A stretch of DNA of 64,000 nt from Elusimicrobiota bacterium (GCA_016706425.1 JADJJR010000001.1:619133-683132), one strand, 5' to 3'. Counted from the stretch's first letter, positions 3,023 to 64,000 are shown. Notes: generated from the letters alone by a model not told the origin. Numbers and translations: made by a program.

Positions 3023-4420
3023 GTGTCCCTAGTGGAACCCCAACCTCTCTTTTTGTCGTCTTCGGGCCGGGGTCGCGGGGCCCACGCTCTGGCCATTCTC
3101 GCCGGGCCGGCCGGCCTTCCGCTGTTCTCCATCCTGCTTTTGTGGGCGATGATCCGGTCGCCTTTCCCCGCCGTGCACCTCTACCCGTTGTTCGTCGTGT
3201 TGTCGCTCGGCCTTTACCTGCTCGCCGGTCTCGGTTGGGCTTTCGGGGCGACGCTCGTGGCCACGGCTGTCGGGTTCGTGGGCTTCTTTTTTTCATCGGA
3301 AACGTGGGCCCGACCGATGTACGCCCTGGGCGCGGGCCTCGTGTGGGGGATTTTCTGGGTGCTCGCCCGGTTCGACCGCAAGCGGCACCTGTCGTGGAAC
3401 CGGTTCCACGAAGAATGGGACGGGTTGGAACTGGAATTGTCCCGGTTGAACGCCGACCTGGAATCCTCCCGTTCAATCATCGAGGACAACCGCGCCCGGA
3501 TCAACGCCTTCGACCGGCTTCAACTGTTCACCGATGATCTCATCGGTCCTTACCACCGCGACGAGTTGTTGCAGCGCGCCCAGGCGGGTCTGGGCACCAT
3601 GTTCCCCAAAGGCCGCGTCACCCTGCACCTTTTTCCCAAGCCCGACGCGCCCGACCCGTCCGACGATTGGGGGATGAAGGTGTTGCAGTGGGGCCAACCC
3701 CGTCTGCTGGCCTCGCGGACGTCGACCACCCCGAGTTGGGAACCCGGTCTTTTCATCTGCCTGCCGGTCAAGGGGCGGGAGAGTTTTCTGGGGTGGATCG
3801 GGATTGAATCCAAATCGACGGAAACCCCCCTGCGCATTCACGACCTGCGGCTGGCGTCCATCGCGGCCGACCTGATCTCGCTCGCCCTCGGGAACACGGA
3901 AAAATACAGCCAGACCGAGGCCCTCGCCATTTCCGACGAGCTCACCGGCATCTACACCCGGGGGTATTTCAACGAGCGCCTGCAGGAGGAATTCGGCAAG
4001 GCGCGCCACAACAGCCGGCCCTTCGCCCTGGTGCTCCTGGACATCGACCACTTCAAAAAAGTCAACGACGCGCACGGCCACCACATGGGCGACGAGGTCC
4101 TGCGCTGGCTGGCGCGGCTGGTGACGGCGCAGGCCCGGGAAACCGATTTCGTCGCCCGCTACGGGGGCGAGGAGTTCGTCATCATCATGCCCGCGGCCCG
4201 GGGCACCGACGCCCTGCGGTTCACCCAACGCCTCATCAAGACCATCGCCGGCACGCCCTTCCGATGGGGGCAGAAGAAAATCAAGATCACCGTGTCGGCC
4301 GGGGTGTCGAGTTTGAAAGACGAAGTGCCCTCGGAAGAGGAATTGCTGCGACGGGCCGACGAGGCCCTCTACGCCGCCAAGAACGCGGGCCGCAACCGGG
4401 TGTGCGCCTATGCGGATTGA
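3023..4420 (+). CDS. Membrane-anchored GGDEF diguanylate cyclase
   Basis: GTG start with a GGGAGG SD 5 nt upstream. N-terminal TM helices. GGDEF domain (LTGIYTRGYFNERL...RYGGEEFVIIM). Confidence 0.7.
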   Translation: MSLVEPQPLFLSSSGRGRGAHALAILAGPAGLPLFSILLLWAMIRSPFPAVHLYPLFVVLSLGLYLLAGLGWAFGATLVATAVGFVGFFFSSETWARPMYALGAGLVWGIFWVLARFDRKRHLSWNRFHEEWDGLELELSRLNADLESSRSIIEDNRARINAFDRLQLFTDDLIGPYHRDELLQRAQAGLGTMFPKGRVTLHLFPKPDAPDPSDDWGMKVLQWGQPRLLASRTSTTPSWEPGLFICLPVKGRESFLGWIGIESKSTETPLRIHDLRLASIAADLISLALGNTEKYSQTEALAISDELTGIYTRGYFNERLQEEFGKARHNSRPFALVLLDIDHFKKVNDAHGHHMGDEVLRWLARLVTAQARETDFVARYGGEEFVIIMPAARGTDALRFTQRLIKTIAGTPFRWGQKKIKITVSAGVSSLKDEVPSEEELLRRADEALYAAKNAGRNRVCAYAD

Positions 4421-5756
4421 CATCGGGTTGACGCACGCGTTGTTGTTCTGGGGCACGGTGCCCGTGCTGTGGGGGTGCGTGCTGTACCGGGACGCGCGGT
4501 GTTTTTTCGTCGCCGGGGTGTTCAGCTTTTTGGCCGTGATGCACGCCTCGCTGGGCGGCGGGGGCGCGGTGGACCTGGCGATCCATTTGGCGGCCTACGG
4601 GGCGGGCGTGCTGGTCCCCCTCTTTTTCCGCCGGGCGCAGACCCAAATCGAACGCGAGTTTTCCCGTCGGCGCACGGCCCTCCTGGACCAGCGCGCCAAA
4701 GCCGCGCAACGGCACGAAGCCGTGCTGAAAGAAAAGAACGCCCTGCAGGACGACTTGGAGCGGTTGCAGAACCGCTTTGCCCTGGTTCAAGTGATGGCCA
4801 CCAAGCTCGAAGCGGGGGAAATCCTGCAAACGCTGGGCCACATGTGGAAGAAACGGACCGGGGTGAAGGGCTGCCTCATCCTGCGCAAGCAGCTCAACGG
4901 CAATTGGAGCACCGCGTTCACCGACGGGCATTTCAACGCGCAGGACTGGGTGCGGGTGCTCGCCTCTTACCCGTCGATCGCCCGTTCGCGCAACATCCGG
5001 CGCTACACCGGCTCCAGCCGCCAGCTGGTGCTCCCCGGGCAGCCGTTCGGATCGACGTGCCTGCTCGTGCCGTTCAACTGGGACAAGGACATCCTCGCCA
5101 TGGGCATCGTGGAGGTGGAGCCGCAGCGCCTCCAGGACTCGACGGAAGGATTCAACATCGAGCGGAAATTGGTGTCGATCGGCTTGCGCCGGGCCGATCT
5201 TTACGATTTAATGACGGAGCGCAGCCGCTTCGACGCCCTGACGGGGGCTTTCCTCCGGCGGAGCCTCACGGAGCGGCTGGAAGACGCCCTGCGCAAGAGC
5301 CACCGGTACAACACGCCGATGTTCTTCGCGCTCATGGACATCGACCACTTTAAAACCCTGAACGATCGCTGGGGCCATCTGGTGGGGGACAAGGTATTGA
5401 TCCACCTGGCCCACGTCATTCGACGGCTCGCGCACCCGGGCATCACGCTGGGGCGCTTCGGCGGCGACGAGTTCGCTTTGATCTTGGAAATGGAGACCGT
5501 GACGGAAGTGTTCACCTGGTTCGAACGTTTGCGGCAGGCGGTGGCCGAATCCCCCCTGCGCGATCGGGAAGCGATGATTCGGTACACCCTGAGCGCGGGG
5601 GTCAGCGCCTACATGCCCGACCGGCCCCCGCTGTCGGAGCTGATGGCCCAGGCGGACCACGCCCTCTACCAAGCCAAGAAAATGGGCCGCGACCGGGTGG
5701 TGCTGTGGAAAGCGCCGGGCAGTCCCTCGTCCAGCCGGAAAACCGTGAGCGTCTGA
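4410..5756 (+). CDS. Membrane-anchored GGDEF diguanylate cyclase with coiled-coil
   Basis: TM N-terminus, coiled-coil segment, GGDEF domain (LTGAFLRRSL...RFGGDEFALIL). Overlaps the upstream GGDEF gene by 11 nt. Confidence 0.7.
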   Translation: MRIDIGLTHALLFWGTVPVLWGCVLYRDARCFFVAGVFSFLAVMHASLGGGGAVDLAIHLAAYGAGVLVPLFFRRAQTQIEREFSRRRTALLDQRAKAAQRHEAVLKEKNALQDDLERLQNRFALVQVMATKLEAGEILQTLGHMWKKRTGVKGCLILRKQLNGNWSTAFTDGHFNAQDWVRVLASYPSIARSRNIRRYTGSSRQLVLPGQPFGSTCLLVPFNWDKDILAMGIVEVEPQRLQDSTEGFNIERKLVSIGLRRADLYDLMTERSRFDALTGAFLRRSLTERLEDALRKSHRYNTPMFFALMDIDHFKTLNDRWGHLVGDKVLIHLAHVIRRLAHPGITLGRFGGDEFALILEMETVTEVFTWFERLRQAVAESPLRDREAMIRYTLSAGVSAYMPDRPPLSELMAQADHALYQAKKMGRDRVVLWKAPGSPSSSRKTVSV

Positions 5757-11542: not shown

Positions 11543-14500
11543 ATGTTCGAAATGAATCGCCGCGCCAAAACATCGTTTTTTATTTTGTTGTCGGTTCTCG
11601 TGGCCGGGGCCGCGGGAGCCCTGGAATCGGCGGGGCACGGGTTGGGATTGCGCCCCCCGACTCCCGAGCAACGGGATTGGGAAAAGAAGAACATGATCGT
11701 GGCCCGTTCCGTTCGATTGAACGCTCGGGGCCTGGCCCGCGTGAACGCCCACCGCGCGGCGATGGGGCTCTCGACCCTGGGCGCCGCCGCGGCCAATATG
11801 GCCCCCCTGGGGGAAGAGGTCACGGGGGTTGTGGAGGAGGATTGGACCGGGGATTCCGTGGTTTCGGCCGCCGCGTCGGCCGCCGCCCTGCCGCGCTCCG
11901 TCGACAACAGCACCCTCAAATATTTCCCGCCGATCCGCAGCCAGGGCGGCATCGGGTCCTGCGCCCAATGGGCGGGGATGTATTATTGCTTCACCCACAT
12001 GGCGGCCATGTTGCGCGACCAGGACGCGAAGGCCGGCGGCGACACGCTCCGCTTTTCCCCCAAGTACACCTACAATTTGGTGAACGGCGGCTCCGATTTG
12101 GGGTCCTGGTACACCGACGGATGGAACGTCGCCAAAAAGCACGGGGCCGCCACCTGGGCCGCGTGGCCTTACGATTCCAACTTCCGCGCCTGGCCGCTGA
12201 CCGCGGCGATCTGGCGCAACGCCCTCGCCCACAAAACCGACACGACGGGCTGGGTGAGCGCCATCGACACAACCGCCGGGCTGGACCAGTTGAAAACGAT
12301 GTTGGTCAACGGCTACGTCTTGGCGTTGGCGACCTACGTGAACTCCTGGCAATTTAAGACGGCGGGCGACGACCCCGCCACGACGGCCGACAACGCTTTT
12401 GTCGGCAAGGCCGTGGCCCACTGGGTGAACGGCACGGCGGGCGCCCACGCCATGACCATCGTCGGTTACAACGACGACATCTGGGTCGACATCAACAGCA
12501 ACGGCACCGTCGAGGCCGGGGAAAAAGGCGCCCTGCGCATCGCCAACTCCTGGGGCACCGGATACCGGGAAGCGGGTTTCACGTGGCTGGCCTACGATTC
12601 GTTGAAAACCGTGTCGGGGGTGACGGGGGCGCCCTCGGCGGGGCGCCGGCAATCCATTTGGAGCGCCCAGGTGGCCTGGGTCCTGCCCAAGGCCAGTTAC
12701 ACGCCCAAAGCCCTGGCCCAATTCACCCTCAACAGCGCCACGCGCAACCAACTGTACGTGAGCCTGGGGATTTCGGACACCGGCCAGACCGCCCCGACGA
12801 CTCTTTGGACGCCGAACACGCTCCTGTATTTCGCGGGCGGGCCGTACGCCTTCGACGGCACGACGACGGCGGTCGACGGAACATTTGTCCTTGATTTCAC
12901 CGACTTGGCGCCGGCCTACGGCGTGCCCAAACGGTACTACCTGCGCGTCAGCGACAGCACGACGGGCGGGCCCGTGAACGTCAACGCCTTCAAATGGATC
13001 AACGCCCCGGACAACGCCGAGGTGGTCCGCGCCGGCCTGCCGGCGGCGCTGGACGGTCAAACGGGGACCTACGACGTCATCGCGACGGTTTCCACCGGCG
13101 GCGGGGGCACGCCCCCGACCCTGTCCGACATCACCGACCGCTCGATCGCCGAGGACGGCACCACCGGGGCCCTCTCCTTCACGGTGGGAGACGCCGAAAG
13201 CCCGGCTTCCGATTTGTCCGTGACCGCGGCGTCCAACAACGCGACGCTTTTGCCGGCCGGGTCTCTGGCGGTGGGCGGCACGGGCGCCGCGCGGACATTG
13301 ACGGTGACGCCGGCCGCGAACCAATTTGGGACGGCGACGATCACCGTCACCGTGACGGACCCCTCGGCCCGAACCGCCCAGGACACCTTCGTCCTCACGG
13401 TCAATGCCGTCAACGACCGGCCGGTGGCGAGCCCGCAGTCTCTGGTCGCCACGCAAGGGGTCGGCAAGGCCTTCGTTTTGAGCGGCACGGACGTGGAGAA
13501 CTCGCCCCTGTCCTACGCCGTCACGGGGGGGCCCGCCCAGGGGACGCTGACGGGCGCCGCGCCCAATTTGACGTACACGCCGGGCGCGGCTTACACCGGG
13601 GCGGACGCGGTTTACTTCACCGTCTCGGACGGCGCCTTGACGAGCGCCGTTTCGACGGTGTCGTTCACGGTCATTCCGCCGGACGCCACGCCCCCCTCGG
13701 TGTCCTTCACCGCCCCGGCCGACGGGGCCACCGTCAGCGGGACCGTCGCCGTCACGGCGACGGCCGCGGACGCCAACGGCGTGAGCCGGGTGGTCTTCTT
13801 TGTGAACGGGGTGTCGGCGTCCACGGACACCACGGCCCCTTATCGGTTCGATTGGGACACCACACGCGATCCCGTCGGCCTGACCGCTTTGGGAGCCTTG
13901 GCTTTTGATTTGGCGGGCAACTCGGCCCTCGCCACCCGCCAAGTCACGGTGGGGGAAGGCGGCGGCGGTTTCTTTGTGACGCCGACGGCGCTGTCTTTTG
14001 AAGGGGTTCAAGGATCGACCAATCCGCCGCCGTCGCCCGTGTCGGTGTCGGTGACGGGCGGCCAACCGATCGGCGGCGGCGGGTGGACGGCATCTCCCTC
14101 GGTGACCTGGCTGGCCGTGAGCCCGTCCTCCGGCACGGGGTCGGGGGTCTTTTCCGTTTCCGCCAACCTCGGGGGGTTGGGGGTGGGCACCCACAACGGG
14201 TCGGTGATTGTTTCCGACGGGATGACCGGCGGCCAGTCCGTGGCCGTGACGCTGATCGTGATCGCCTCCAACGACGTGATGCCGCCCACGGTGCCCACCG
14301 GTTTGTCCGGCGTGTTGACCGGGACAACCACCGTCGCCCTGTCCTGGAACGCTTCCACCGACATCGGCGGGACGGGCCTCTTCGGTTATCGCGTTTACCG
14401 CAACGACGCTTTGTTGGCGGAGCCCACCGGACGCACCCTTTCGGACACGGCGGTCGTCCGGGGCGGCCGCTACCGCTACCAGGTGTCGGCCTTGGACCGG

Positions 14501-14848
14501 GCGGGGAACGAGTCCGCCCGGAGCGCGGCCGTCGTCGTTGATGTGCCGGCGGCGCCCGTGGTGGAAGTTTTCGGGTTTCCGAACCCGGCGGTGGACGGGG
14601 CCGCTCCCACGATCCGGGCCGTCCTGGGAACGGTGGACTCATTTGAAATCGCCGTCTACGACACCGCGGGCCGCCTGGTCCACACCGACCGCCGCGCCGG
14701 TCCTCCCAACGGCCAGGTCGGGGGTCTGGCCTTTTACGATTACGTCTGGTCGGGGGACATCCCCAGTGGTCTCTACCGCGTGGTGGTCACGGGCCACGGC
14801 GCCGGGGGGACCGTGCGGGTCAAAACCCAGGTGACGATCGTTCGATGA
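11543..14848 (+). CDS. Secreted papain-like (C1) cysteine peptidase with cadherin/Ig-like repeats, FN3 domain and T9SS/FlgD-like C-terminal sorting domain
   Basis: Signal peptide. C1 motifs SQGGIGSCAQWA (Gln/Cys), GAHAMTIVGYND (His), ANSWGTGYREAGF (Asn-Ser-Trp). Repeated VNDRP... and Ig-like units. FN3 (ALSWNASTD...YRYQVSALDRAGNES). C-terminus FGFPNP...GLYRVVV...VKTQVTIVR. Confidence 0.8.
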   Translation: MFEMNRRAKTSFFILLSVLVAGAAGALESAGHGLGLRPPTPEQRDWEKKNMIVARSVRLNARGLARVNAHRAAMGLSTLGAAAANMAPLGEEVTGVVEEDWTGDSVVSAAASAAALPRSVDNSTLKYFPPIRSQGGIGSCAQWAGMYYCFTHMAAMLRDQDAKAGGDTLRFSPKYTYNLVNGGSDLGSWYTDGWNVAKKHGAATWAAWPYDSNFRAWPLTAAIWRNALAHKTDTTGWVSAIDTTAGLDQLKTMLVNGYVLALATYVNSWQFKTAGDDPATTADNAFVGKAVAHWVNGTAGAHAMTIVGYNDDIWVDINSNGTVEAGEKGALRIANSWGTGYREAGFTWLAYDSLKTVSGVTGAPSAGRRQSIWSAQVAWVLPKASYTPKALAQFTLNSATRNQLYVSLGISDTGQTAPTTLWTPNTLLYFAGGPYAFDGTTTAVDGTFVLDFTDLAPAYGVPKRYYLRVSDSTTGGPVNVNAFKWINAPDNAEVVRAGLPAALDGQTGTYDVIATVSTGGGGTPPTLSDITDRSIAEDGTTGALSFTVGDAESPASDLSVTAASNNATLLPAGSLAVGGTGAARTLTVTPAANQFGTATITVTVTDPSARTAQDTFVLTVNAVNDRPVASPQSLVATQGVGKAFVLSGTDVENSPLSYAVTGGPAQGTLTGAAPNLTYTPGAAYTGADAVYFTVSDGALTSAVSTVSFTVIPPDATPPSVSFTAPADGATVSGTVAVTATAADANGVSRVVFFVNGVSASTDTTAPYRFDWDTTRDPVGLTALGALAFDLAGNSALATRQVTVGEGGGGFFVTPTALSFEGVQGSTNPPPSPVSVSVTGGQPIGGGGWTASPSVTWLAVSPSSGTGSGVFSVSANLGGLGVGTHNGSVIVSDGMTGGQSVAVTLIVIASNDVMPPTVPTGLSGVLTGTTTVALSWNASTDIGGTGLFGYRVYRNDALLAEPTGRTLSDTAVVRGGRYRYQVSALDRAGNESARSAAVVVDVPAAPVVEVFGFPNPAVDGAAPTIRAVLGTVDSFEIAVYDTAGRLVHTDRRAGPPNGQVGGLAFYDYVWSGDIPSGLYRVVVTGHGAGGTVRVKTQVTIVR

Positions 14849-15963
14849 GACTCTGGCCCGCGGCGCTTCTCTCGAGCCTCTCGGTGGGGCTCGCGGCCGT
14901 CGAGCCGGGGGCGCCGTTTTTGGCGGTGCCCCCCTCCGCCCGGGTGGAGGCCACGGGAGGCCTTTGGGCGTTCGCCGGGGGGATGGAAACCCTGTCCGTC
15001 AACCCCGCCCTTTTGGGCGTGGACAAAAGTCCCTGGCAATTTTATTCCAGCGCCGGGCAATGGGGCGAGGACGTGCAAACGGCCCACGCGGCGCTCGGGC
15101 GCGCGCACGCGCGAAGGCCCTGGGGCGTGGCGGTGACGCACCTGCGCAGCGACGGCGGCGGGGCGCGGGACGCCCTGGGCGGCGGGTCCGGCGCTTCCGT
15201 GGGTGTCCAGGACACGGCCTTGAGCGTGGGCGCAGCGCGCTCGCCGAACGGCCGCTTCGCCTTCGGGGCGGCGGCCAAGGTGTTTCAATCCAAATTGGGT
15301 TCCTACCGAAGCGACCCCGGGTGGGCGGTGGATCTGGGGGCGGCCTGGCGGGGCGACGCCGTGACGGCCGGCTTCGCCTGGCGAAACGCCGGGCCCGGCG
15401 TGCGTTTCGTCCGCCAGCGGGACCCCCTGCCCCAAACCGTCGACGCGCAACTCGCGTGGCGGCGCGGTCCCGTGACGTTGGCCGCGGGCGGACAATGGGA
15501 CGTGCCGCGTCGAGAATCCCGGATTTTGGCCGGCGGGGAGGCCCAGCTCGGCGCGCTCTCTTTTCGCGGCGGCTACGCGGTCTTGGAAGGGGATTCGTCC
15601 GACACGGAAGGTTTTGAGCGGGCCTCCCTCGGGTTCGGCCTGGCTTTGCCCAATCGGCTTCAGTTGGATTACGCCCTGCGCCCCGGGGGGGACGCTTTCG
15701 GCGCGTTCCACCGCCTGGCGCTGACCTGGACCTGGGGGGAGAAGAAGCCCAAGAAACCGACGGCGCCGGCGGCCCGTCCGTCCAGCGTTTTCAAAAAAGC
15801 GCCGGTCAAACAGGCCCCTAAAACCGTTCCGACGCCACCGAAGGTCGCCCCAAAAGCCGCTCCTGAAAAAAAGGCAAAGCCGGCGGCCAAGGAAAAGCCG
15901 GTCGCGCCCGAAAAGCCCAAACGCCCCCGCATCGGCGAGGGCGGGTACCGATTGGGCGGTTGA
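14845..15963 (+). CDS. Putative outer-membrane beta-barrel protein coupled to the upstream CTD cargo (PorP/SprF- or PorV-like partner?), Lys/Pro-rich C-terminal tail
   Basis: ATG overlaps the cargo stop (ATGA). Signal peptide. Alternating aromatic/Gly beta-strand-like pattern. N-terminal motif shared with the partial ORF at 63508. C-terminal KKPKKPTAPAARP...PEKKAKPAAKEKP tail. Confidence 0.45.
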   Translation: MRLWPAALLSSLSVGLAAVEPGAPFLAVPPSARVEATGGLWAFAGGMETLSVNPALLGVDKSPWQFYSSAGQWGEDVQTAHAALGRAHARRPWGVAVTHLRSDGGGARDALGGGSGASVGVQDTALSVGAARSPNGRFAFGAAAKVFQSKLGSYRSDPGWAVDLGAAWRGDAVTAGFAWRNAGPGVRFVRQRDPLPQTVDAQLAWRRGPVTLAAGGQWDVPRRESRILAGGEAQLGALSFRGGYAVLEGDSSDTEGFERASLGFGLALPNRLQLDYALRPGGDAFGAFHRLALTWTWGEKKPKKPTAPAARPSSVFKKAPVKQAPKTVPTPPKVAPKAAPEKKAKPAAKEKPVAPEKPKRPRIGEGGYRLGG

Positions 15964-16021: not shown

Positions 16022-17637
16022 ATGAGCCTTCCTTCCGAGTTGATGAACGAAATGACCGCGGCGCTGGGCCCCGACAACGCGGTCTGGGCGCCCGCCGCCG
16101 TTGAAGAGCGCACGCGTTCCTGCCTGCCCCAGAGCCACATTCCCGACGGGGTGGTGACCCCCCGCACGCTGGAGGAGGTGCGCGCGGTTTTGGCCGCGGC
16201 GCGCAAACACAACGTGCCGGTCTGGACCATCAGCACGGGAAAAAACTGGGGCTACGGGGAAAAGGCGGCCCCCTACGCCGGCGGCCTGACAATGGAATTG
16301 TCGCGCATGAACCGAATTCTGGAGGTGAACGAAAGGTTGGGGTACGCCGTGATCGAGCCCGGCGTGACCTACGCGCAGTTGCACGACCATCTGCGGGTCC
16401 ACGCGCCCTCGCTGTGGACGGATTCGTCGGGAAGCACCAAGGACGCGAGCGTGATCGGCAACGCGCTGGACAAGGGCCGGGGGTTGACGCCCTACGCCGA
16501 CCACTTCGGCGCGCTCTGCGGCCTGGAGGTGGTGTTGGCCGATGGGCGCGTGGTGCGCACGGGCGGCGGGCCCGACAACAACCGGTGTTGGACCTGTACA
16601 AATGGGGCGTGGGCCCCTACCTGGACGGCCTCTTCGCCCAATCCAACCTGGGGGTGGTGGTGAAGGCCGGGGTGTGGCTCATGCCGGCCCCCGAGCGCTA
16701 CGATTTCATGGCCTTCGAGTACACCGCGGGGGCGGACCGTTTTCCGGCGTTCATCGAGGATTTCCGGTCGCTGATCTTCCAGAACGCCATCCGCTCGCGG
16801 CCGCACCTGGCCAACGATTTCGCGATGCTGTGCATCGTGTCCCAATACCCGCACGACTTGGCCGCGGGGCAACGCACGCTGTCCCCGGAGGCCATGGCGG
16901 CCTGGCGGAAAAAGTTCGGGGTGTCCGCCTGGACGTTCGGCTGCGGGGTTTACGGGAGCCGCGGGGAGGTCGCCCACCAGAAAAAACGCATTAAGAAAAC
17001 CTTCGCCCGCTACGGGGTGACGCGTTTCATCGGGTCCTACGTGAATCAAGGCCGGTGGGGGCGCCTTTACCGATGGGCGGTGCACACGGGCATGCGCTGG
17101 ATGGGAAAATCCCCCGAATTGATTGAGGCGATCTGGCCGGCGATCAACCTGTTTCGTGGCGTTCCCACGGACCAATACGCCAAGCAGGTGTATTTCAAGC
17201 ATTACGACCGGAAGCCGACGGACACCATCGACCCGGCGCGGGACGGGTGCGGTTTCATTTGGATCGGCCCCGTGGTGCCCTTCACGGGGGAAGACGCGGC
17301 CCGGGCCATGGACCTCGCCCGCCCGGTCTTTGCGAAGCACGGGTTCGACGTGTTCATCGAACTGATCGTGGAAAGCCCCCGGGCGTTGATCGCGCTGTTT
17401 GGCGTTTTTTACGACAAGAAAAGCGCGGAGGAACGCGCGCGCGGCGCGGCCTGGTACAAGGACATGCGGGAGGCCTTTTTGGACGCGGGGTACCCGCCCT
17501 ACCGCGTGGGCACCGGCAGCCAGCCCGGCGCCTTCGATCGGACGCCCGTGTTGCGGGACGTCGTCCATCGGATAAAAAAGAGCCTCGACCCCGACAACAT
17601 CCTGGCTCCCGGCCGCTACGGCACACCCCCTCGCTGA
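16022..17637 (+). pseudogene. FAD-binding oxidoreductase (PCMH-type FAD domain, vanillyl-alcohol oxidase/4-cresol dehydrogenase family) split by a frameshift near 16565-16575
   Basis: N-terminal half in frame 2 (16022..16663, PCMH FAD-binding domain). C-terminal half in frame 1 (ORF from 16414 to 17637). The junction ...TGGGPDNN / ...VLDLYKWGVGPYLDG lies at a GGG/CCC run. Confidence 0.6.
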
Positions 17638-17656: not shown

Positions 17657-18154
17657 TTAGAAGCGGGACCAGGTTGTTCCCCGGCTGTCGCGGTGGGTGC
17701 AGTTGATGAAAAATCGGCCGCCGGTGTACGGGGGATTTGTAGGGAAAAGGCGGTAGCCAAAACCGCCCGTATCAAGCATGCCCGCGGGAAAATAGCTAAG
17801 GGGTTGCGCCCCGATGTAAGATACGAAACTCAACGGGTCGGTCGAGTCGTGAGGGAGGGTCCGAACTGAAATGGGGGTCATGTTGTAACCCCCGCTGATG
17901 GGTGAAAGGTATTTGCCGACGAGATGGGTTGGGTGGCTTGGGTAAAACCCTTCGGTGTCGGCGTAGTACAAACCGAGCGCAGAACGATAGGTTCCCAGGA
18001 GGGCGAGGTTTTTTGCTTCCCGGGCCCGAACCAGCATATCGCCGAATTTGGGAATGGCGATGGCCGCCAATAGGCCGAGGATGGCCACGACGAGCATCAG
18101 CTCAATCAAGGTGAACCCCGGGGGCGGGTATCGATGGGAAAGTTTTCGCCTCAC
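17657..18154 (-). CDS. Type IV pilin / pseudopilin (prepilin N-terminal cleavage-methylation domain)
   Basis: [13 protein letters not shown]|[22 protein letters not shown]: leader ending in Gly, Phe+1, Glu+5, hydrophobic helix. No other pilus genes nearby. Confidence 0.75.
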
Positions 18155-18303: not shown

Positions 18304-18469
18304 AGGCCGAAAGGCCGGGGGGAGGACGGGAGGCCTCCCCCCACACCCCGCTCCCGCGGATGTCACCGCCGGGGCCGGGCCGCCGCGGCGGCCCAACGAC
18401 GAAGGCGTCTTGCGCGTGAAACCGCGCGGGACGCCTTTTTTGCTTTGTGGGGCAACAAAGGAGACGGAC

Positions 18470-21400
18470 ATGAAGACTTCGCTTGCGCAACGCTGGATCG
18501 CGTCGGTCACCACCGGCGCCTACCTTTTTACCGTGATCGGGGCGGCTCCGGTCGAGGCGTCTTTCTGGGAGGACCGCGCCCGTGCCCGCCGTTCGGACGC
18601 CGCGCCGTCGGGGCCCGGCCCTCTGTTGGCCCAACGGCCCGCCGCGCTTCGCGTTTCCTGGACCCCGGTGGGGTCCGCCGCGCTGTCGGCACCCGTGCCG
18701 CGTCCCGAACCGTCGGTGCCCGGCTGGGCCCGCGCGGCGGTCTCGCGCCACGGCGAGGTCCGAAACCTTTGGGAAGGCCCGGCCCGGGGCCCGCGGGTGT
18801 TCCTCCTGCTGGACGCCCACGACGTCGTTTCCGCCCAGCGCAACATCGCCGGGTTCCTCGCTCAATTCTCGTCCACGGCCCGCCCCGTGATCGGGGTCGA
18901 GGGGACCTCCGGCGCCTTCGCCTTCGACCGATACCGCGACCTCCTTGCCCCGGCGGACCAACGCGCCTTGGCGGAGCATTTGCTTAAAAAAGGCTTTTTG
19001 AACGGCGTCGAGTTGTTCGCCTTGACGGCCGAAACCGCTCCCGCCCTGTGGGGGGTGGAAGACCCGGCGCTCTACGACGCCCACGTGCGCGCCTACCGGG
19101 CGTCTTTGCCGGTGAGCGACAAAACCCGCGCCGCCCTGGCGCGGCTGAAAACCGATTCCCAAGAAGCGGCGGACCGGCTGTTTTCGCCGGAACTCCGCGC
19201 CCTGGACAAGGAAATCGCCGCCCGTCACGAAGACCGGAGCGACGCCGCCCGTTACGCCGCCGTTTTGGCCGAGGCCCTGGGGGACGCGGCGGGCCCGCAG
19301 ACCCGTCGTTTCCTGTCCGCCAAACGCCTGGAGGAGGGATTCGCCTTCCCCGATGTTGAGCAAGCGCGGGCCGCTTTCATCGAGCGGGTCTCCCCGCGCC
19401 TGTCGCCTTTTGAAACCCAACACTTGGTGCGCCTCACGGCGGAGTTCCGGGCGGGGGGCCTCTCGGGCCGCGACTACTACGCCCGCCTGGAGGAAACCGC
19501 CGCTTCCAAGGGCGTGCCCGTTTCGGCGTACCCGCCGTTCCAAAAATACATCCGCTACGTCGCCGCCGCCGAGGCGGTGGATCCGACGGCGCTCCTGGAG
19601 GAGTGGGACGTTTCCGAAGACCGCGCTTACGCCCGACGCTCCCGTCCGTCGGAGCGGCCGTTGATCGAATGGATTCAAGACCTGCGCCTGGCCGAACGCG
19701 CGGTGACCCACGCGCTGACGCCCGTCGAATGGGAGCGGGTCCGCGCGCGCCGCGCGCGGTGGGGGGATTGGGTTGAACGGGCGACCGCGTTGGGGGCGCC
19801 GGTCGACGCCGCGACGGATTTGCGATCGACACTGCCCGTTTTTGAATCCTTTTGCGAGGCGGCCGACGCGCGGAACGCGGCTCTTTTGGACAACGCGCTC
19901 GCCGCGGCCGAACGGCGCGGGGCGCGCGACGTTGTGCTGGTGACCGGGGGGTTTCACGCCCCGGCTTTGCGGCGGTTGTTGGAGGTCAAGGGCCTTTCCC
20001 ACGCCGTCGTGGCCCCCTTCGTCACGGAAGTGCCGGAAGACGGCACCGGGTACCTGCAGGCCTTCGCGTCGACCCGCACGCCTCTTGAACGGCTGTTGTT
20101 GGGCGACCGGCTTTTCATGAACCCCCCTTCGGCCACGTCCGTCGCCGTCCAGGACCCGGCGTCTCCCTTTCACGCCGCCGCCAAGGCCCTGGATCGCGCC
20201 GCGTTGGTTTACAGCGTGCCGTTGGTTCGCGGCGCGGATCTCAACGGTTTCATCGCCAAGGGCGGATGGAAGGCCACCGCGGCGTGGGACGCGACCGGGG
20301 ACCGGCGCACCGTCGAAATTCGCTTCGCCGGTTCCGCCCAGTCGGTGATGGTCGCCTCGCCCCGGGACGGGGCCGCCGCCAGCGGGGAGGGACTCGCCCG
20401 TTCGGTGGAAGAGACCGGCGCGCGGGTCGTGGAGACGGACACCGTCGGCGGCGTTCCCTACGCTCTGGGCGGCAAGACATTGGTCCGGGCGATTCCAGAA
20501 TGGATCGCGGGGGCGGCGTTCTTGATGTGGTGGGGGGCGGCGTCCTTGGCGCCGCCGGCGCTCTTGTGGGGTTTGGGGGCGGGGGCCATCGCCGGCGGCC
20601 TCATGTTGCGGGGCATGATCCTCGGCGCGGCGTTCCTGCACGGGGCCGGACACGCGGCCGCGGCGCGGACCGAAGGAGGAGCTTCCTTCCGCGGTTCCTT
20701 GGCCGCCTACGCGCGGTCCCTGGGCTGGACCGGTCTGGTGCCCTTCGCCCCGGTGTTCCTGCCCGGCCTTTCCCCGGAAAAAGAGGCGCCCAAAATGGAC
20801 ATCGGTCCCATGGCCGACGGTGCGGCGCGCCGGGTGGCCCTGGCCGGGCCCTTGGCCAACCTGACCGCCGTTGGGCTGGTGGCGCCCTTCCTGTCGCTCA
20901 CAGGGACTTTGGGACTGACCGACCTGGTTTTGGCGGCTTTCGCGGGGATCAACCTGTGGACGGCCCTCGCGTCGGTGTCGGATCTCCGCACGGCGCTCTC
21001 CGGCGTGGGCCGCGTGCTGGCCTGCGGGGTGGTGGGCGTGGTGTACGGCGGTCCCAACCCAAAATCCGAAACCCTGCCGGAGGGCGTGCAACGCTTGATG
21101 GATGGGGCCGTCCTGCGCACGCTCCACCGCGGCGGCCAGTCGGGGGGTGTGGCGGCGGTGGCGGTGCGGGAAAACGGCCACGCGGAGTTTTCGTTCTTTG
21201 TTGAAAAAACCGCCAAGGAGCGGGACCGCCGCGCGCGCCTGGGGGCGCTGATGCGCGCGGGCATGGCCCGCCTCGCGGCCCGCGCCCAAAAGGCGGGGTT
21301 CGGCGGCCTGCGGCGCCTGGTGGTGATCGGTCACACGCGCTACGGAACCAACCTGGCCCAGCCCGTGGCCGTCAACGCCCACCCCCACACCAGCGCGGGG

Positions 21401-24400
21401 GAAACCGACACGGTCCTTTACATCGGGGACGGAAAACGCGACGCCAAGTACGAGCGGCCCTGGGAACGGCCCGTCGACGCCCCGACGGTGAAATCCGTCG
21501 CCCTGCCGCGGGGCGTGGCCATCGCCCACAACGGCGACGACAACGCCACGGTCCTGTTCCGCCGGGGCGATCGGAAGGTCGAGCTCTCGAACGAGGACGA
21601 CGCCCGCCTGAGCGAGCGGATGACGGGACACCAAAACCCCGCTCAGGGCGACTCGCCCCAAATCGCCACCCGGTTCGACCGCTGGATCACCCAAGGGTCG
21701 GTGCGCGCGTCCCTGCGGTTGGCCCTGCTGAACACGTCCTTGGAATCCTTGCCCGGGGAGGACCTGTCCGCCGAAGAGGTCCTGGCCCGCGCGCCCACGC
21801 CGGCCACGCTGGACGGGCTGATGCAGGCCAAGACCTTTCAGGGATTTGCCGCCGAGTTGGAGGCGCTCCACCGCCGGCACCCGGCCGCGACGCATGGGGA
21901 GGCGTTGTTCGCCGCCGCCGGCGCCCGGGGGGTGTCGGACGAAGCGGTCTGGGATCTGGAGGACGCCGTGCCGTTCGTCGGAGGATCCGACATCGAAAAA
22001 CTTCGGAACACCCTGGCCGACCAATCGCGGGCGGTGTTTAAAATCTTGCCCTGGTTCGCCGCGCTGGAGGGGGCGGACCAGGCGCGCGCCGCGCGGCGCT
22101 TCGCCGACCTGTATTTAAAATTTTTCTTCACCGGCGATCTCCGTCGGGCGGGCGTCCATCTGTTGCGGCGGGCGGACCCGACGTCCACTTTCGGCGTGAT
22201 GGCGGGCACGCTGTTGGAGGGGGAAAGCGCCGTTTGGTTGCGCCAGCGTCAGCCCTTCTACCTGTGGATGTCGACGGACGGGCTCAGCGTGGCCGGCAGC
22301 AGCGAGGCCAAGGCCTTTTTGGGCGCGCGCGCGGGGGAAAGCCCGTTCCGCCATCGCCTGACGTTGAAGAACGGGGAGGTCGCGACCCTGCGGGGAACCC
22401 GGCTCGTCATCGACCACGTGGAGCGGGGGCGGGTGGCGTCCTACGACCTGTCCCGCCCGGCCGAGGCGTTCGCCGACGCGCGGTGGTTGGATTTGGAAAC
22501 CAGCCCCCACGTCACCGCCTCCACGTCGGAAGCCGTGCCCGCGGAAAAGCGCGTGCGGGACGACACGGAAACCATTCCCTGGGTCAACGCGAAACTGGCC
22601 GAGGATTTCGCCGATCCGAAATCCAACAACAGCCGCTCGGCGGACGCCCTCGTGGGTTTGCTCGCCGACCGGTTGGCCAAACGGAAATCCGCGGGCGGCG
22701 GGATCGACCTGGTGATCGTGGGCACGGAAAAGAGCTTTGACGCGGCCTCGGCCCACGCCCGAATCCTGGAAAAAATATCCAGCCTCGCCGGTCGGCGGCT
22801 CAACGTCCGCGTGGTGTACGGCGCGGAATTCACCCGGGAGGATTTGGTTCAAATGCGGGACGAAGGCTTTGGCGCCGACACGGTCGTCCTGGGCCTGACC
22901 AGTTCGGGCCAGACGGCGAACACCTTTTACGCGCTCGAAGGGCTCCACGCCGCCTGGCGCGGCCTGCGGGAAAAAGCCGGTCTTCCCGACGACGCGACGC
23001 CCCCCCATTTCCTGGTGTCGGCGGACATCGACAACCCCTACACGGAGGAAGTGCTCGGGCAGGGGCTCGGCGCCGGGGATCCCTTCAAAGCCCGGAATTT
23101 CGTGACGTTTCCCGCCCTCGATCCCTTCCACCCGGCGGAGGCGGCGACGGTCACCCACAAGGCCACGGAGCGGCTGCTGAAGGAAGTGTCGGCGCGCTTC
23201 GCGGCGGCGTTGGCCGCCAAGAGCCGGCGTTGGGCCGGCGGGGGCCTGCCGGGACACATCCCGGGGTCCATCCGCCGCATGGTGGACAACGGCGATGAAC
23301 TGGACCGCCGGATCACCGGGTTGGACGCCGACGGCAACCCCCACCGCCACCTGCGGCGCACCGGGGAGACCAACGACATTCCCGACCAGATCGGCGCCGG
23401 GGCCGATCGGCTGAGCCAAGCCTTTTTAGAATCCCTCTGGGCGACGGGCGCCACGGCCCTCTTCATCGCGGTGACCCTGTTGTTCCACGCGACGCCGGCG
23501 AGCGTTCTCCTGAGCGGGTTCCCCAACGGGGCCTACCTGTTCGCCGACGGGGTGCCGCTGTTGGCGGCCGGCGTGGGGCTGTTGACCGTCGCCGTCGCGG
23601 CGTGGAAAACCCGCGCCTGGCGATGGCACGGTTTGTTCGCCGCCTTGGGGGGCGTGGCGGTCTTCGGGGCGGGTCTTTTCGCCGGGGAATCCCTGGTGTT
23701 GGCTCTCGACGCGGCGGGCCGCGCGGCGGGTTGGGGCGCCCTGGGCACGGGGTGGGGCTCCTTGCCCCTGGGTTTGGACGTCTCCCCGGTCAACTTGGTG
23801 AACGCGTTCACCTACATTTTCTTTTTCTTCGGATTCACCCTGGCCTTGAGAAAATACCAGGGACGTCCGTTGTGGGACCGGTTGGGCGGCCGCGTTTTGG
23901 TCTTGGCGGACGCCCAGCATTCCATCGCGCGTTTGAGCGCCGCCCGTTGGCGCCGCATGCTCAGCCACCGGTTCGGCTGGATGGGGCTCAATTCGATCAA
24001 TGAGTCGTCCCTCGGACGGTTGACCCACGAGGAGGCGCTCAATTCCAACGTGCGGGGCAACATTTACCTGCAGGGGGAGGCCCGCCACGCCGAGGGGCCG
24101 ACCCTGATGAATTACAAGCAATTGGGCGGCAGCCCCAACGGACCCGGCCGGGTGTGGCGCATGGGGATCGGGCACAAGCCGCGCGCCCAGGCCAGCGCCG
24201 CCTATTCGGAGGGCTACATCTCCCTCCACATGAAGAGCGACGACGTCGCCGGGTCGGACCCGGACCTGGCGGTGTTGCAGGACCTGGTGCAGGACGGCCC
24301 GGCCCGCGACACCGCGGGAATGGTCCTGTCGTTGGAAGTGGCGGAGCGCATGGCGGGCATTCGCCCCTTGAACTTCGTGGTGGGCATGACCTCCAGCGAA

Positions 24401-31317: not shown

Positions 31318-31431
31318 GCCGGACCGGCCGCGAACCGCGCCGCGTCGAATCATTCCCACTCATTCCACCAAGAACTTTTGCGCCGCCCCGGTGTCCCACC
31401 GGTGCGGCTAATTTATTTTGAGAGGACCCCC

Positions 31432-46382: not shown

Positions 46383-46885
46383 CTAAACGGAGGCGTGCAC
46401 TTCGACGCGGTTGCGGCCGAGGTCCTTGGCGCGGTAGAGGGCGCGGTCGGCGAAGGTCAACAGGTGCTCCAGATTTTCTCCCGCCACCGATCGGCTCGCG
46501 ATGCCGAAGCTGGCGGTGACGGTCAGGGAGCGGCCCTCGGCCTCGATGGGGGTCGCGGCCACGGCGTGGCGCAGGCGCTCGACCACCTCGCGGGCCGCTT
46601 CGGGGAGGTGTCGGGCAGAAGAACGGCGAATTCCTCGCCGCCGTAGCGACCCACCACGTCGGTCAAACGCAGGCCGTTTTTGAGACGTCGGGCGACCTCT
46701 TTCAACACGATGTCCCCGACCCCGTGGCCGTGGGTGTCGTTCACTTTCTTGAAATGGTCGATGTCGGCCATGACCACGGCCACGCCCCCGGGGCCGGGCC
46801 CGCGGCGGCGGGCGTTTTCCCGTTCCGCCAGAAAGAAGAACTGCCGCCGGTTGAAAAGGCCCGTCAATTCGTCCGTGATGGCCAA
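46383..46885. repeat. ~500-bp near-identical 3' segment shared by the three tandem GGDEF paralogs (copy 1)
   Basis: Nucleotide-identical to 47926..48424 and 49446..49937 apart from homopolymer lengths and a few substitutions near the stop codons. The N-terminal parts diverge. Confidence 0.7.
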
Positions 46886-50992: not shown

Positions 50993-51056
50993 CGGTGGGG
51001 CGCGCGCGGCGCCCCTTTAAGAATGGGCCGGAAAAGAGCCGAACTCAATGGTTTTC

Positions 51057-56849: not shown

Positions 56850-57224
56850 ATGAATACACTTTTGGCCGGGGATCGCGTGCCGGCGGCGGAAGCCCGCCGG
56901 CGGATCAACATGATCGTTCTTGAAATCGACGCCAAAGGGACGGATCTGGCCCGGGGCCTCAATATCAACGACGCCCAACTCAACCGCATGCGCCACAAAA
57001 AGACGGGATTTTACCGACAGGAAACCCTTCGCCCCATCAACCGGCTTCAGGAAATCTTGGACCTGGCCGAAAAGATTTTGACCCGCCCGGGGCTCCGCAA
57101 ATGGTTCATGACCCCGACCCCGAAACTGAACGATTTGCCGCCTTTGATGTGCCTTCGGACCGACAAGGAGGCGGAGAAAGTGAAATCCCTCCTGATGGCC
57201 CTGGGGCACGGTTTTCCTGCGTGA
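56850..57224 (+). CDS. Xre-family/DUF2384-type antitoxin (ParS/MbcA-like)
   Basis: C-terminal W...P...L..LPP...L.T....E.V..LL.AL..G pattern (RKWFMTPTPKLNDLPPLMCLRTDKEAEKVKSLLMALGHG) typical of RES-partner antitoxins. Stop overlaps the toxin start. Confidence 0.55.
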   Translation: MNTLLAGDRVPAAEARRRINMIVLEIDAKGTDLARGLNINDAQLNRMRHKKTGFYRQETLRPINRLQEILDLAEKILTRPGLRKWFMTPTPKLNDLPPLMCLRTDKEAEKVKSLLMALGHGFPA

Positions 57225-57878: not shown

Positions 57879-61882
<4,004 letters not shown>

Positions 61883-61886
<4 letters not shown>

Positions 61887-63511
61887 AAAAAGCGCTGGCG
61901 GTGTTGTTGATGATGGCGGCGGGCGGCCTACGCGCGGCGGTCACCACCGAACAGGTGACCACGGTCTCGGCGGTATCGTCCACCACGTTCATGGGCACGA
62001 ACGTCGCCCTCGATAGCCTCAACACCGTTCACGTGACTTATTACGATCCGGCGAGCCAGCGGCTGCGTTACACCAAACTGGTGAACGGGCAAACCACCTG
62101 GTCGGCGCCGATCAACGTCATCGACCAAACCGTGTCGCCCCGGAGCGACATGAAGTTGAGCGGCAACACCCCCCACGTGGTTTTCTATGAAATCGACGCC
62201 ACGGGGTCCCGGGCCGGGGTCAAACACACCCAACTGAACGGGTCGACGTTTCAGTCGCCCACCACCATCCAAAGCTTTGTCTCCACGATCACCTATGTGT
62301 CCCTGGCCGTCGCCTCCAACGGTCAACCCCGCGTGGCCTTCAACAACACCGTCAGCTCGGCCACGGTCTACGCCGCCTACAGCGGCACGGTCTGGAGCAC
62401 CCACACGGTGCACATCAGTTCTTACCCCACGGCGGTGGCGTTGGATTTGGCCTCCGACGACACCCCCCGGCTGGCCTTCCTGACGGGGGGGGACTCCCTG
62501 GGCCTGCCCGATGACCGATTGGGGTATTTCGCTGTCGGTGGCTCCACGCCGACGGTGAAGGGGTGGTGGCCCGTGGACTGGGCGACCGCCCCGCCGTCGG
62601 GCTTGGCTTTGGCGGTGGACGACAACAACCAATCGCACATTTTCGACAGCTACACGTCGGGCGGTTCCCCGTGGATCGAGTATTACCTCGCCTCGAGCAC
62701 CGGCGGGTTTTTGAATTACGAACCGGTCGGCGGCGGAAGCGAATTTCTGGACGCCGCGGTGAACAGTCTGGAACGTCCCACGGTGGTTTATTTGTCCACC
62801 GCACCGGGGTTTTCAAGGGCGGCGTGGAACGGCACGGGGTGGGAATATTCGGTTCTGGACGGCTCCGCCGCCGTGGCGGGGGTCGGCCCCAGCGTGGTTT
62901 ACAACCGGTTCGATCATTTCCTGGCCACCTATTACACCACCGCCCCCGCGGCGGCGGTTCATCTCCAAACCGACGCGAACCGAGGCTTGACCCTGGGCGG
63001 CACGGTCCAGGATTTCGCCGCGGCGGCCATCCCCGGCGCGGTCGTCCAATTGGCGGGGAGCATTGCCACCGGCAACCTCCCGGCGGGAACGGGTTCCTAC
63101 TCCCAATTGAACCTGTGGGAGGGGGGCTACACCGTGACGCCCTCCGCGGCCGGGTACGCCTATGTCCCCGCGAGTCAATCCTTTGCCTCGTTTCAGGCCA
63201 CCAACACCACCGTGAATTTCGTGGGCGGGCCCGTGAACATTGACGTGGCCGACAATTTGTTTGATCCGTCCAAGGGCGAGATCATGACGGTGAATTATTC
63301 CGTCCTGCCCGGGGCGGTGTTGGTACGGGTTTACACCCTACGGGGCGTGCCGGTCAAAACCCTGGTGGACGGTTCCCACGCCGCCGGCGCCTTCAGCACG
63401 ACCTGGGACGGCCGCAACGACGCCGGGGAAATCGTCGCGAGCGGAATCTATTTGATCCGGATCGAAGCGGACCGGCTGAACAAAATTTTGAAAGCGGCGG
63501 TGGTTAAATGA
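61883..63511 (+). CDS. Secreted beta-rich protein with T9SS/FlgD-like C-terminal sorting domain
   Basis: GTG overlaps the carA stop (GTGA). Signal peptide. C-terminus NLFDPSKGE...[13 protein letters not shown]...GIYLIRIEA...KILKAAVVK resembles Por_Secre_tail / FlgD-Ig-like. Confidence 0.6.
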
Positions 63512-64000
63512 AACGCGCGCGTCGAGCCGGGATTCTCTTGATCGCCGGGGCGATCCCCTGGGCCCTCCGGGCCGTGGACTCGCGCACCGGCGGTTTGACC
63601 CTGTTGGAGACCGCCGACGCCCGCGCCACCGCCCTGGGCGAAGCCGCGACCGCCCTGACGGGGGATTTGAGCGGGGTGGCCTACAACCCGGCCGCCCTGA
63701 CGACGATGGAATTTTCCCAGTTCTTGTCCCAATTTGAAACCTCCCCCGGCGAGGTGCGCACGGGGCTCCTGGCCGGCGGGTGGACCAATCAGCGGGTGGG
63801 TCTGGCCGCGTCGGTCGCCTACCTCGACGCCGGCACCATCGACATCGTGCCCACTCTGGGGCCGTCGGTCACCCGCCGCGCCCAGCAGGATTTCGTGGGG
63901 TCCCTGTCGGCGGGCGCGGCCCTGGCCGAGGGGTTCCGCGTGGGTGTCACGGGAAAATTCCTGACCTCCCGCCTGGCGGAGGAAGCTTCGGCCACCGCGG
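63508..64000 (+). CDS. Putative outer-membrane protein, paralog of 14845..15963 (partial; runs off the window)
   Basis: ATG overlaps the upstream stop (ATGA). N-terminal motif LLETADARATALGEAATALTGDLSGVAYNPAALT parallels LAVPPSARVEATGGLWAFAGGMETLSVNPALLG. Confidence 0.45.
   Translation, partial: MKRARRAGILLIAGAIPWALRAVDSRTGGLTLLETADARATALGEAATALTGDLSGVAYNPAALTTMEFSQFLSQFETSPGEVRTGLLAGGWTNQRVGLAASVAYLDAGTIDIVPTLGPSVTRRAQQDFVGSLSAGAALAEGFRVGVTGKFLTSRLAEEASATA

Follow-up and report, generated by a model that had tools for sequence, protein, structure and literature searches.

Secreted proteins with type A-like C-terminal domains and adjoining PorV/PorQ-family barrel genes in Elusimicrobiota: a candidate cargo and barrel module of a type IX-like sorting pathway

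The type A C-terminal domain (CTD) carried by type IX secretion system (T9SS) cargo proteins is a compact immunoglobulin (Ig)-like 3+4 beta-sandwich located at the extreme C-terminus (PMC11285876). In Bacteroidota, PorV is the shuttle that recognises all type A CTDs, and for type-B cargos the shuttles are PorP/SprF-like and linked genetically to the cargo; in the SprB/SprF pair of Flavobacterium johnsoniae the cargo gene adjoins the gene of the cognate barrel, which sets the final location of the cargo (PMC12618676). In the attachment complex of Porphyromonas gingivalis, the CTD of PorZ stays bound to PorQ, a case of surface retention by an uncleaved type A-like CTD on a dedicated barrel, and "cognate PorV-like barrels" have been proposed as protecting CTDs from cleavage (PMC10202324).

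Here we analysed a 64,000-nucleotide stretch of DNA (the window, meaning the stretch at its full length) from Elusimicrobiota bacterium (GCA_016706425.1, JADJJR010000001.1:619133-683132), in which the gene of a secreted papain-like protease with Ig-like repeats and a C-terminal CTD (cargo 1) overlaps the gene of a PorV/PorQ-family outer-membrane barrel (partner 1). Similar pairs were found at the end of the window and in other genomes, and the pairing is conserved across unrelated passenger domains. Our preferred reading, to which we give a probability of about 0.6, is that such a pair forms a module of cargo and cognate barrel within a type IX-like sorting pathway, with one shuttle or anchor per cargo and the translocon encoded elsewhere in the genome. 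The individual proteins have already been labelled by automated annotation; a systematic coupling of cargo and barrel in a phylum outside the Fibrobacteres-Chlorobi-Bacteroidetes (FCB) superphylum was not found described, and a literature search found no paper tying Elusimicrobia to T9SS, PorV or gliding.

A CTD protein and a PorV/PorQ-family barrel in one operon

The window DNA is of high GC content (62-72%) and identical over the tested stretches to contig JADJDY010000001.1 of the "Elusimicrobia bacterium" metagenome-assembled genome (MAG) GCA_016702405.1; a protein from an "Elusimicrobia bacterium" MAG has 100% identity to partner 1. Both genes of the first pair (Table 1) carry a strong coding signature (GC at third codon positions 0.87 in cargo 1) and are kept in other assemblies at 47-89% identity. 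The protease domain is the best-conserved part of the operon, with 87-89% identity versus 68-84% for the partner in the same genomes. The TGA of cargo 1 (14846-14848) is overlapped by the ATG of partner 1 (14845-14847), preceded by a Shine-Dalgarno-like sequence within the coding end of cargo 1, and the two genes are translationally coupled.

Cargo 1 carries the complete catalytic set of papain-family (C1) peptidases, with Q134 and C140 in SQGGIGSCAQWA, H302 in GAHAMTIVGYND and N335-S-W337 in ANSWG. Q134 and C140 align to the QG-CGSC motif, N335-S-W337 to NSWG, and H302 to the motif around the catalytic His (HG/HA..IVGY) in ervatamin C and procerain B, so that the Gln-Cys-His-Asn set is in register with cathepsin K, ervatamin, procerain and caricain. 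These motifs are invariant among cargo 1 orthologues, down to one at 47% identity. Compared with known C1 peptidases the protein is very divergent, carrying insertions of two residues between Cys and Trp and of ~17 residues between His and Asn, and it stands at the Pfam threshold: the whole protein scored 16.1 bits (E = 0.012) against Peptidase_C1 (PF00112), and the isolated protease domain 20.6 bits with a cut-off of 20.7. Taken singly, the PDB matches of the protease were all insignificant, yet nearly all belonged to the papain family; a profile of four orthologues matched cathepsin K with E = 1.8e-5, and the papain family accounted for 62 of the 63 PDB sequences with E < 1. The assignment is strengthened by a 47%-identical orthologue of the same 1,101-aa architecture in another Elusimicrobiota MAG (locus L030), which passes the Pfam thresholds (Peptidase_C1 28.2 bits; fn3 25.4 with a cut-off of 25). 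Downstream of the protease domain, the best Big_9/Cadherin_5 stretch covers residues 623-710 and the NCBIfam tandem-95 repeat residues 572-632, followed by further Ig-like and fibronectin type III (FN3)-like domains (Table 1).

In the T9SS-displayed gingipains, too, Ig-like domains and a CTD come after the cysteine protease part, a layout shared with cargo 1 as a functional analogy; gingipains are of family C25, unlike cargo 1, which is of family C1. In the region of the secreted protease, at 31378-37488 (+), the window also encodes a protease-trapping protein, a 2,036-aa bacterial alpha-2-macroglobulin with MG2, bait region, A2M, TED-like and bMG10 domains.

The CTD of cargo 1 (CTD 1), taken alone, was matched best by TIGR04183 (18.8 bits, cut-off 23), Por_Secre_tail PF18962 (16.1 bits, cut-off 27) and FlgD_ig (13.8 bits), with no other model scoring higher; it further aligns to the PorZ model and to the T9SS-dependent M6-like model, in each case at the C-terminus of the model. 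The type-B model TIGR04131 matched neither cargo 1 at E ≤ 0.1 nor the isolated CTDs at E ≤ 10, and CHU_C gave weak sub-threshold matches on some sibling CTDs. By these model matches CTD 1 is type A-like (TIGR04183/Por_Secre_tail/FlgD_ig) and not type B. Homologous sibling CTDs exceed the TIGR04183 cut-off (24.8 bits in L007, 30 in L020 and 38 in L033). The database relatives of the CTD are mostly Elusimicrobia fragments; several carry PF18962, and several are labelled by NCBI as [quoted passage not shown]. When a six-sequence CTD profile was compared with the PDB, it matched the Ig domains of FlgD (1.7e-4) and, in PorU, the CTD at the C-terminus (6ZA2, residues 1061-1153 of 1156; 7e-3), with weak matches to an "Endonuclease I" chain of 75 residues (8GLK_D) and to PorZ at its C-terminal end (5M11). 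The AlphaFold2 (AF2) model of the domain is a beta-sandwich of seven main strands with a pLDDT of 88.5.

By its best matches, partner 1 is a predicted FadL-like barrel of the PorV/PorQ family and not a PorP/SprF protein. It matched the NCBIfam model PorV_fam (NF033709) at E values of 2e-19 to 8e-20 (70.3-71.6 bits, cut-off 90) and the PorQ model at 7e-14, while the PorP/SprF models (TIGR03519/PF11751) gave no match at E ≤ 0.1 and a Pfam scan none at all. An exhaustive homologue search returned 980 cluster representatives at E ≤ 1e-3; all 50 of 50 aligned relatives match the PorV_fam (best 3.7e-58) and PorQ models, and 39 of the 50 the PorV model, with only marginal matches of the barrel family to FadL/Toluene_X sequence models. 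The AF2 model (overall pLDDT 77.5) has ~14-15 strands after short N-terminal helices; block-mean pLDDT in the barrel region is mostly 80-96, dipping to 56-63 near residues 100-120 and 250-260, and falls to 33-63 in the tail (residues 300-372). The best two Foldseek matches are PorV chains, 6H3I_F (E 6.6e-11, TM-score 0.60/0.65) and 8GL6_F, followed by FadL and TodX; both chains are F. johnsoniae PorV in SprA complexes, among them forms without and with a bound RemA CTD. Residues N53, P54, G141, D163, G165, G183, P196 and G263 are invariant in a 40-member alignment, and N53, G141, G165, G183, P196, G230 and G263 in a 50-member alignment; the closest relatives keep the N53-P54-A55 and QRDPLP motifs.

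The 73-residue tail of partner 1 consists of 23% Lys, 22% Pro and 16% Ala. Its nearest relatives have similar basic, Pro-rich tails, and distant ones carry SPOR, OmpA, TPR-like or LysM-like C-terminal extensions instead. On PorV-family relatives, precomputed Pfam annotation lists SPOR (P0012), OmpA (P0183) and TPR (P0164, P0165) domains, and TPR-like (P0105, P0116) and LysM-like (P0159) extensions were read from sequence. This range of extensions suggests that PorV-family barrels may generally be linked to the cell wall. From the FadL/PorV topology and the relatives' C-terminal extensions, the C-terminus of partner 1 would be periplasmic and may contact peptidoglycan.

A preliminary description of this locus, made from the sequence alone, had given both reading frames and their start/stop overlap, the C1 catalytic residues, the Ig/cadherin/FN3 repeats, and the signal peptide and Lys/Pro-rich tail of the partner, all of which our analysis bears out. 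It had further read the CTD as typical of Por/T9SS (or FlgD-Ig-like) sorting tails, the partner as a putative outer-membrane beta-barrel, and the arrangement as that of type-B cargos and PorP/SprF-like partners; the sorting-domain models are indeed the best matches and the barrel prediction holds, but type B and PorP/SprF do not.

Table 1. Positions of the two gene pairs and their parts, counted from the first nucleotide of the window.
Feature	Position	Strand	Basis
Cargo gene 1, 1101 aa, secreted C1 protease, Ig-like repeats and CTD	11543..14848	+	open reading frame; identical gene called in GCA_016702405.1
Cargo 1 predicted Sec signal peptide, residues 1-26, ...AGA/LES	11543..11620	+	basic n-region, hydrophobic core, AxA site in the sequence
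Papain-family (C1) peptidase domain, residues 116-353; Q134, C140, H302, N335, W337	11888..12601	+	PF00112, orthologue profile, motifs
Two cadherin-like/Big_9 ("tandem-95") repeats, ~residues 525-710	13115..13672	+	Pfam Big_9 1.3e-13, Cadherin_5 4.9e-10
Big_7 bacterial Ig domain, residues 718-775	13694..13867	+	PF17957, 1e-19, 71 bits
BACON-like Ig domain, residues 811-897, sub-threshold	13973..14233	+	Pfam BACON_2, 20 bits vs cut-off 25
FN3-like domain, residues 898-1000	14234..14542	+	NCBIfam CbhB positions 784-885 at 9e-18
CTD of cargo 1, residues 1007-1101, FGFPNP...SGLYRVVV...VKTQVTIVR	14561..14845	+	TIGR04183, Por_Secre_tail, profile, AF2
Shine-Dalgarno-like AGGTGA, 10 nt 5' of partner 1 ATG, within cargo 1 coding end	14829..14834	+	read from sequence
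ATGA stop/start overlap of cargo 1 and partner 1	14845..14848	+	read from sequence
Partner gene 1, 372 aa, PorV/PorQ-family outer-membrane barrel, basic Pro-rich tail	14845..15963	+	open reading frame, NCBIfam, AF2/Foldseek
Partner 1 predicted signal peptide, residues 1-18, ...GLAA/VEPG	14845..14898	+	sequence
Partner 1 N-terminal helical segment and beta-barrel, residues 20-299, N53-P54-A55 motif	14902..15741	+	AF2, alignments
Partner 1 Lys/Pro/Ala-rich tail, residues 300-372, predicted disordered	15742..15960	+	composition, AF2
Cargo gene 2, 542 aa: N-terminal repeat domain, CarboxypepD_reg-like domain, FlgD_ig-type CTD	61883..63511	+	domain scans
Cargo 2 CTD, last 95 residues	63224..63508	+	FlgD_ig, TIGR04183
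Partner gene 2, first 164 codons, cut by window end; ATGA overlap with cargo 2	63508..64000	+	PorV-like open reading frame

Recurrence of the pair and co-divergence of its parts

The same architecture, which the preliminary description had also placed at 61883-64000, is present there as a second pair, a CTD cargo (cargo 2) and a PorV-like open reading frame (ORF) with the same stop/start overlap. The CTD of cargo 2 alone passes the FlgD_ig cut-off (37.6 bits, cut-off 27) and stays under that of TIGR04183 (18.5 bits versus 23). Partner 2 has 324 aa in the source genome (L013:14027-15001) and scores 104.6 bits on PorV_fam, above the cut-off. A profile scan of all window ORFs of at least 50 aa detected two ORFs with a CTD and two PorV-like ones, no more, and both barrel genes lie directly 3' of a CTD gene, a pairing beyond chance. 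The second pair stands in the gene order purA-carA-cargo 2-partner 2-carB (59482-64000; L013:10001-18319), where purA, carA, cargo 2 and partner 2 are joined by 4-nt overlaps and carB begins 6 nt past partner 2. The site is unusual for genes of surface proteins and suggests that they are expressed constitutively along with those of nucleotide biosynthesis.

Beyond the window the pair was found at 15 independent loci, 10 of them from Elusimicrobia MAGs. Species-representative genomes were screened with the back-translated motif GPGxx[FY]xxQ[RT]DPLP, which gave 24 hits. A PorV-like ORF was present at 16 of these (15 from Elusimicrobia/Elusimicrobiota MAGs, with one MAG contributing four); the remaining eight hits, in phyla that are unrelated, had none and serve as a chance control. 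Directly upstream of 11 of the 14 evaluable barrels, and on the same strand, lay a CTD-bearing ORF; the exceptions were L025, whose upstream gene does not encode a CTD protein, the second barrel in L022, and L039, where the order is reversed. Metagenomes added four more pairs (L007, L015, L016 and L017), with partner homologues of ~30% identity just 3' of large CTD proteins. Most junctions measure -14 to +9 nt and four are wider (~52 to 126 nt); the -4 overlap of the first pair recurs in window pair 2, L005, L012, L016, L022 and L030. Other Elusimicrobia partners scored 155.8 and 90.4 bits on PorV_fam.

The passengers of these modules, namely a C1 protease, TIG arrays, Kelch and NHL propellers, Big_7 arrays and OmpL47-type domains, are unrelated, and the sole element common to all cargos is the CTD, which ends at the last residue in 16 of 16 modules analysed. 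Furthermore, over 16 pairs the CTD-CTD identities follow the barrel-barrel identities (Mantel r = 0.80, a value that 0 of 2000 permutations reached; r = 0.66 without near-orthologues). This correlation fits pairs duplicating and diverging as units, though shared phylogeny contributes.

Some arrangements differ from that of the window. Barrel genes that do not adjoin a CTD gene were found in L010, L025 and the Gemmatimonadaceae locus L043, the last alone among housekeeping genes. The stand-alone PorV-like gene of L010 (L010:72-6948) lies 3' of an ABC operon akin to the gliding-associated GldA/GldF/GldG module (ABC_tran, ABC2_membrane, ABC_transp_aux, DUF4340). In one Elusimicrobia MAG (L028:793-7998, +) a PorV-like gene precedes the gene of a signal-peptide protein of > 2,400 aa with beta-propeller and OmpL47-type domains, and in L039, of the same reversed order, a 1,108-aa protein has a C-terminus that matches the PorZ CTD (5e-12). 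Three Elusimicrobia Kelch/NHL cargos carry a ZU5 domain just before the CTD (L022:3871-6105, -; L033:3957-5273, -; L038:5869-7998, -). ZU5 domains are often autoproteolytic, which hints that self-cleavage could release the passenger from an anchored CTD.

The proposed type IX-like module and its alternatives

In the module that we propose, cargo and partner would both be exported by Sec, and the partner would insert in the outer membrane as a FadL/PorV-type barrel, with the Lys/Pro-rich tail of partner 1 staying in the periplasm and possibly reaching peptidoglycan. The CTD of the cargo would be recognised by its own dedicated barrel rather than by one shared PorV. By analogy with PorQ/PorZ and with SprF-like proteins and type-B adhesins, the barrel may collect the cargo during outer-membrane crossing and hold it at the cell surface via the uncleaved CTD. 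The overlapping stop and start would give roughly equimolar cargo and barrel, a ratio more in keeping with a stoichiometric anchor than with a shuttle that is recycled. Passage through the outer membrane would be left to a large translocon, SprA-like or other, encoded elsewhere, since a plugged barrel of FadL size, judged by known structures of the family, cannot pass a folded 1,100-aa protein. We propose each barrel as a cognate collector or anchor because a type A-like CTD and a PorV/PorQ barrel occur here in a genetic layout of one barrel per cargo, which is that of type-B systems. Binding between CTD and barrel is a prediction from conserved adjacency and co-divergence, and CTD-directed secretion of cargo 1, with retention or cleavage of its CTD, is predicted from the described systems.

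Each of the described systems shares a part of this arrangement. The partners score on the PorQ model, the CTDs align to the PorZ model at its C-terminus, and surface retention as in PorZ-PorQ may apply to the pair; the pair departs from PorZ-PorQ in that all scores lie far under the equivalog cut-offs of the PorQ and PorZ models, the passengers do not resemble PorZ, and there are many pairs per genome, with genes adjacent and often overlapping, in the phylum Elusimicrobia. F. johnsoniae PorV (6H3I/8GL6), the best structural match of partner 1, is of the same FadL-like family and shuttles cargos with type A CTDs, to which the CTDs here are alike; however, its identity to partner 1 is just 14-17%, each cargo here has its own barrel gene, and partner 1 bears the long basic tail. 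The type-B SprB/SprF pair has the cargo gene likewise next to its barrel gene, but both the CTD family (TIGR04131) and the barrel family (PorP/SprF) are others. FadL, TodX and the spirochaetal UPF0164 proteins share the barrel fold and the N-terminal NPA motif, and some relatives of the barrel carry UPF0164 or Toluene_X matches; these proteins, however, take up hydrophobic small molecules and have no CTD protein as a pair mate.

Several observations weigh against a type IX-like pathway. Partner 1 stays below the curated PorV_fam cut-off and CTD 1 below those of TIGR04183 and PF18962. The CTD profile scored the FlgD Ig domain slightly above the PorU CTD, and Foldseek with the CTD model returned generic Ig-like folds only, without singling out T9SS CTDs, which makes the fold test non-discriminating. 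The co-variation of CTD and barrel may partly reflect shared species phylogeny. SprA/Sov, PorK/L/M/N, PorU, PorZ, PorT, PorW and PorE are all missing from the window and ~7 kb beyond it (~3% of the genome), and ten signal-peptide or envelope-type ORFs flanking other modules included nothing T9SS-related. The host phylum, Elusimicrobia, is outside the FCB superphylum; T9SS genes have been reported absent outside FCB phyla (PMC11285876), and TXSScan found no T9SS outside Bacteroidetes (PMC4793230). A 2541-aa neighbour was considered as a candidate of SprA size and rejected, as it has no SprA signal, shows transmembrane-like hydrophobic stretches on reading of its sequence, and weakly matches a GlmS-type amidotransferase.

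From the same observations an autonomous minimal system can be drawn, in which Elusimicrobia without SprA, PorKLMN and PorU use the pair without a canonical T9SS: the CTD would dock on or in the barrel, the passenger would reach the surface via BAM/TAM or an unknown channel, and the pair would perhaps be a precursor of T9SS cargo recognition. We regard this as unlikely, and as rather unlikely its wider form, in which the pair is a self-sufficient, modular display system with barrel-specific CTDs, either a simpler relative or forerunner of T9SS or one feeding an unknown translocon. The reported restriction of T9SS to FCB phyla speaks for such a system, as does the lack of core genes near any of the ~17 modules examined, which are scattered among housekeeping genes, one of them within purA-carA-...-carB; the tight 1:1 coupling and co-divergence also suggest a self-contained unit. 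However, absence of core genes from the flanks says little, because in Bacteroidota too the core genes are unlinked to cargo genes, and the window covers just a small part of the genome. Moreover, the barrel with its N-terminal plug would be too small for the folded cargo, and the NCBI label of type A sorting domain on many Elusimicrobia proteins fits a divergent full system.

It is improbable that the two genes are unrelated neighbours, the partner being an ordinary FadL-type channel, the CTD a generic Ig/FlgD-like module, and their adjacency a matter of co-regulation, e.g. for uptake of the protease products. FadL and TodX are the next-best structural matches, N53-P54-A55 resembles the hatch motif of the family (the structures matched include that of a FadL hatch mutant, P34A), FlgD scores well with the CTD profile, Foldseek finds only generic Ig folds for the CTD, and the barrels of L010, L025 and L043 are not beside a CTD gene. 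Against this, sequence models place the barrel in PorV/PorQ, with FadL/Toluene_X matches marginal; the pairing persists with protease, Kelch, NHL, TIG and Big_7 passengers, which share no product that could be taken up; nothing but the CTD is constant, and it stands at the extreme C-terminus in every case; and CTD and barrel co-diverge. Very improbable is the type-B version of the preliminary description. The cargo-then-barrel order and tight linkage do resemble the F. johnsoniae type-B CTD/SprF-like pairs (PMC12618676), but neither the type-B CTD model nor the PorP/SprF models match at E ≤ 0.1 (CHU_C weakly, on some siblings), the CTD fits type A models, and the barrel fits PorV/PorQ models and the PorV structure. 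Two-partner secretion and autotransport were ruled out, as Pfam and NCBIfam scans found no Omp85/POTRA or autotransporter domain.

Neighbouring genes and meaning of the pairs

The window genes scanned for T9SS core functions are of housekeeping type (MltD-like, GlmM-like, GGDEF, Fmt, HtpX, RlmN, a PASTA-domain protein with a PknB-family match, the alpha-2-macroglobulin, PEP carboxylase, ThyX, PurA and CarA/B). Directly after the first pair, a 1-nt deletion near 16591 (GG-ACC versus GGAACC in another assembly) divides a FAD-linked oxidase gene (16022-17637, +) into two ORFs that overlap. In four related assemblies the gene is intact (538-552 aa), and the split probably reflects either a homopolymer error of the assembly or a pseudogene of recent origin. 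A type IV pilin/pseudopilin-like gene with an N-terminal methylation motif (17657-18154, -) is kept just 3' of the oxidase in some relatives and is shorter, missing or called differently in other assemblies of the same species. The 2,541-aa protein mentioned above (18410-26035, +) is conserved beside the module in all relatives (2,511-2,521 aa) and has no Pfam family; its GlmS-type match covers residues 872-999, and it has several hydrophobic segments. Genes of cyclic di-GMP signalling are unusually dense, with three tandem GGDEF genes at 46383-50993 (-), two of them with GAF, and two more at 3023-5756 (+). Between ppc and thyX, at 56850-57730 (+), the genes of a 124-aa protein and a 169-aa RES-domain protein overlap by 4 nt, which looks like a RES-type toxin-antitoxin pair.

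As a module of a type IX-like pathway, the first pair would make cargo 1 a candidate cell-surface cysteine protease, which bears on the feeding of uncultured wastewater and groundwater bacteria. Type A-like CTDs with their own PorV/PorQ barrel depart from the model of a single PorV shuttle, and there are several such pairs, with varied passengers, per Elusimicrobia genome. If the pairs are cognate, they would form a natural library for how PorV-type barrels recognise CTDs, because their sequences co-vary pair by pair, and T9SS-type sorting would extend past its accepted FCB range. If the core machine is absent, the pair would point to a new route of outer-membrane display.

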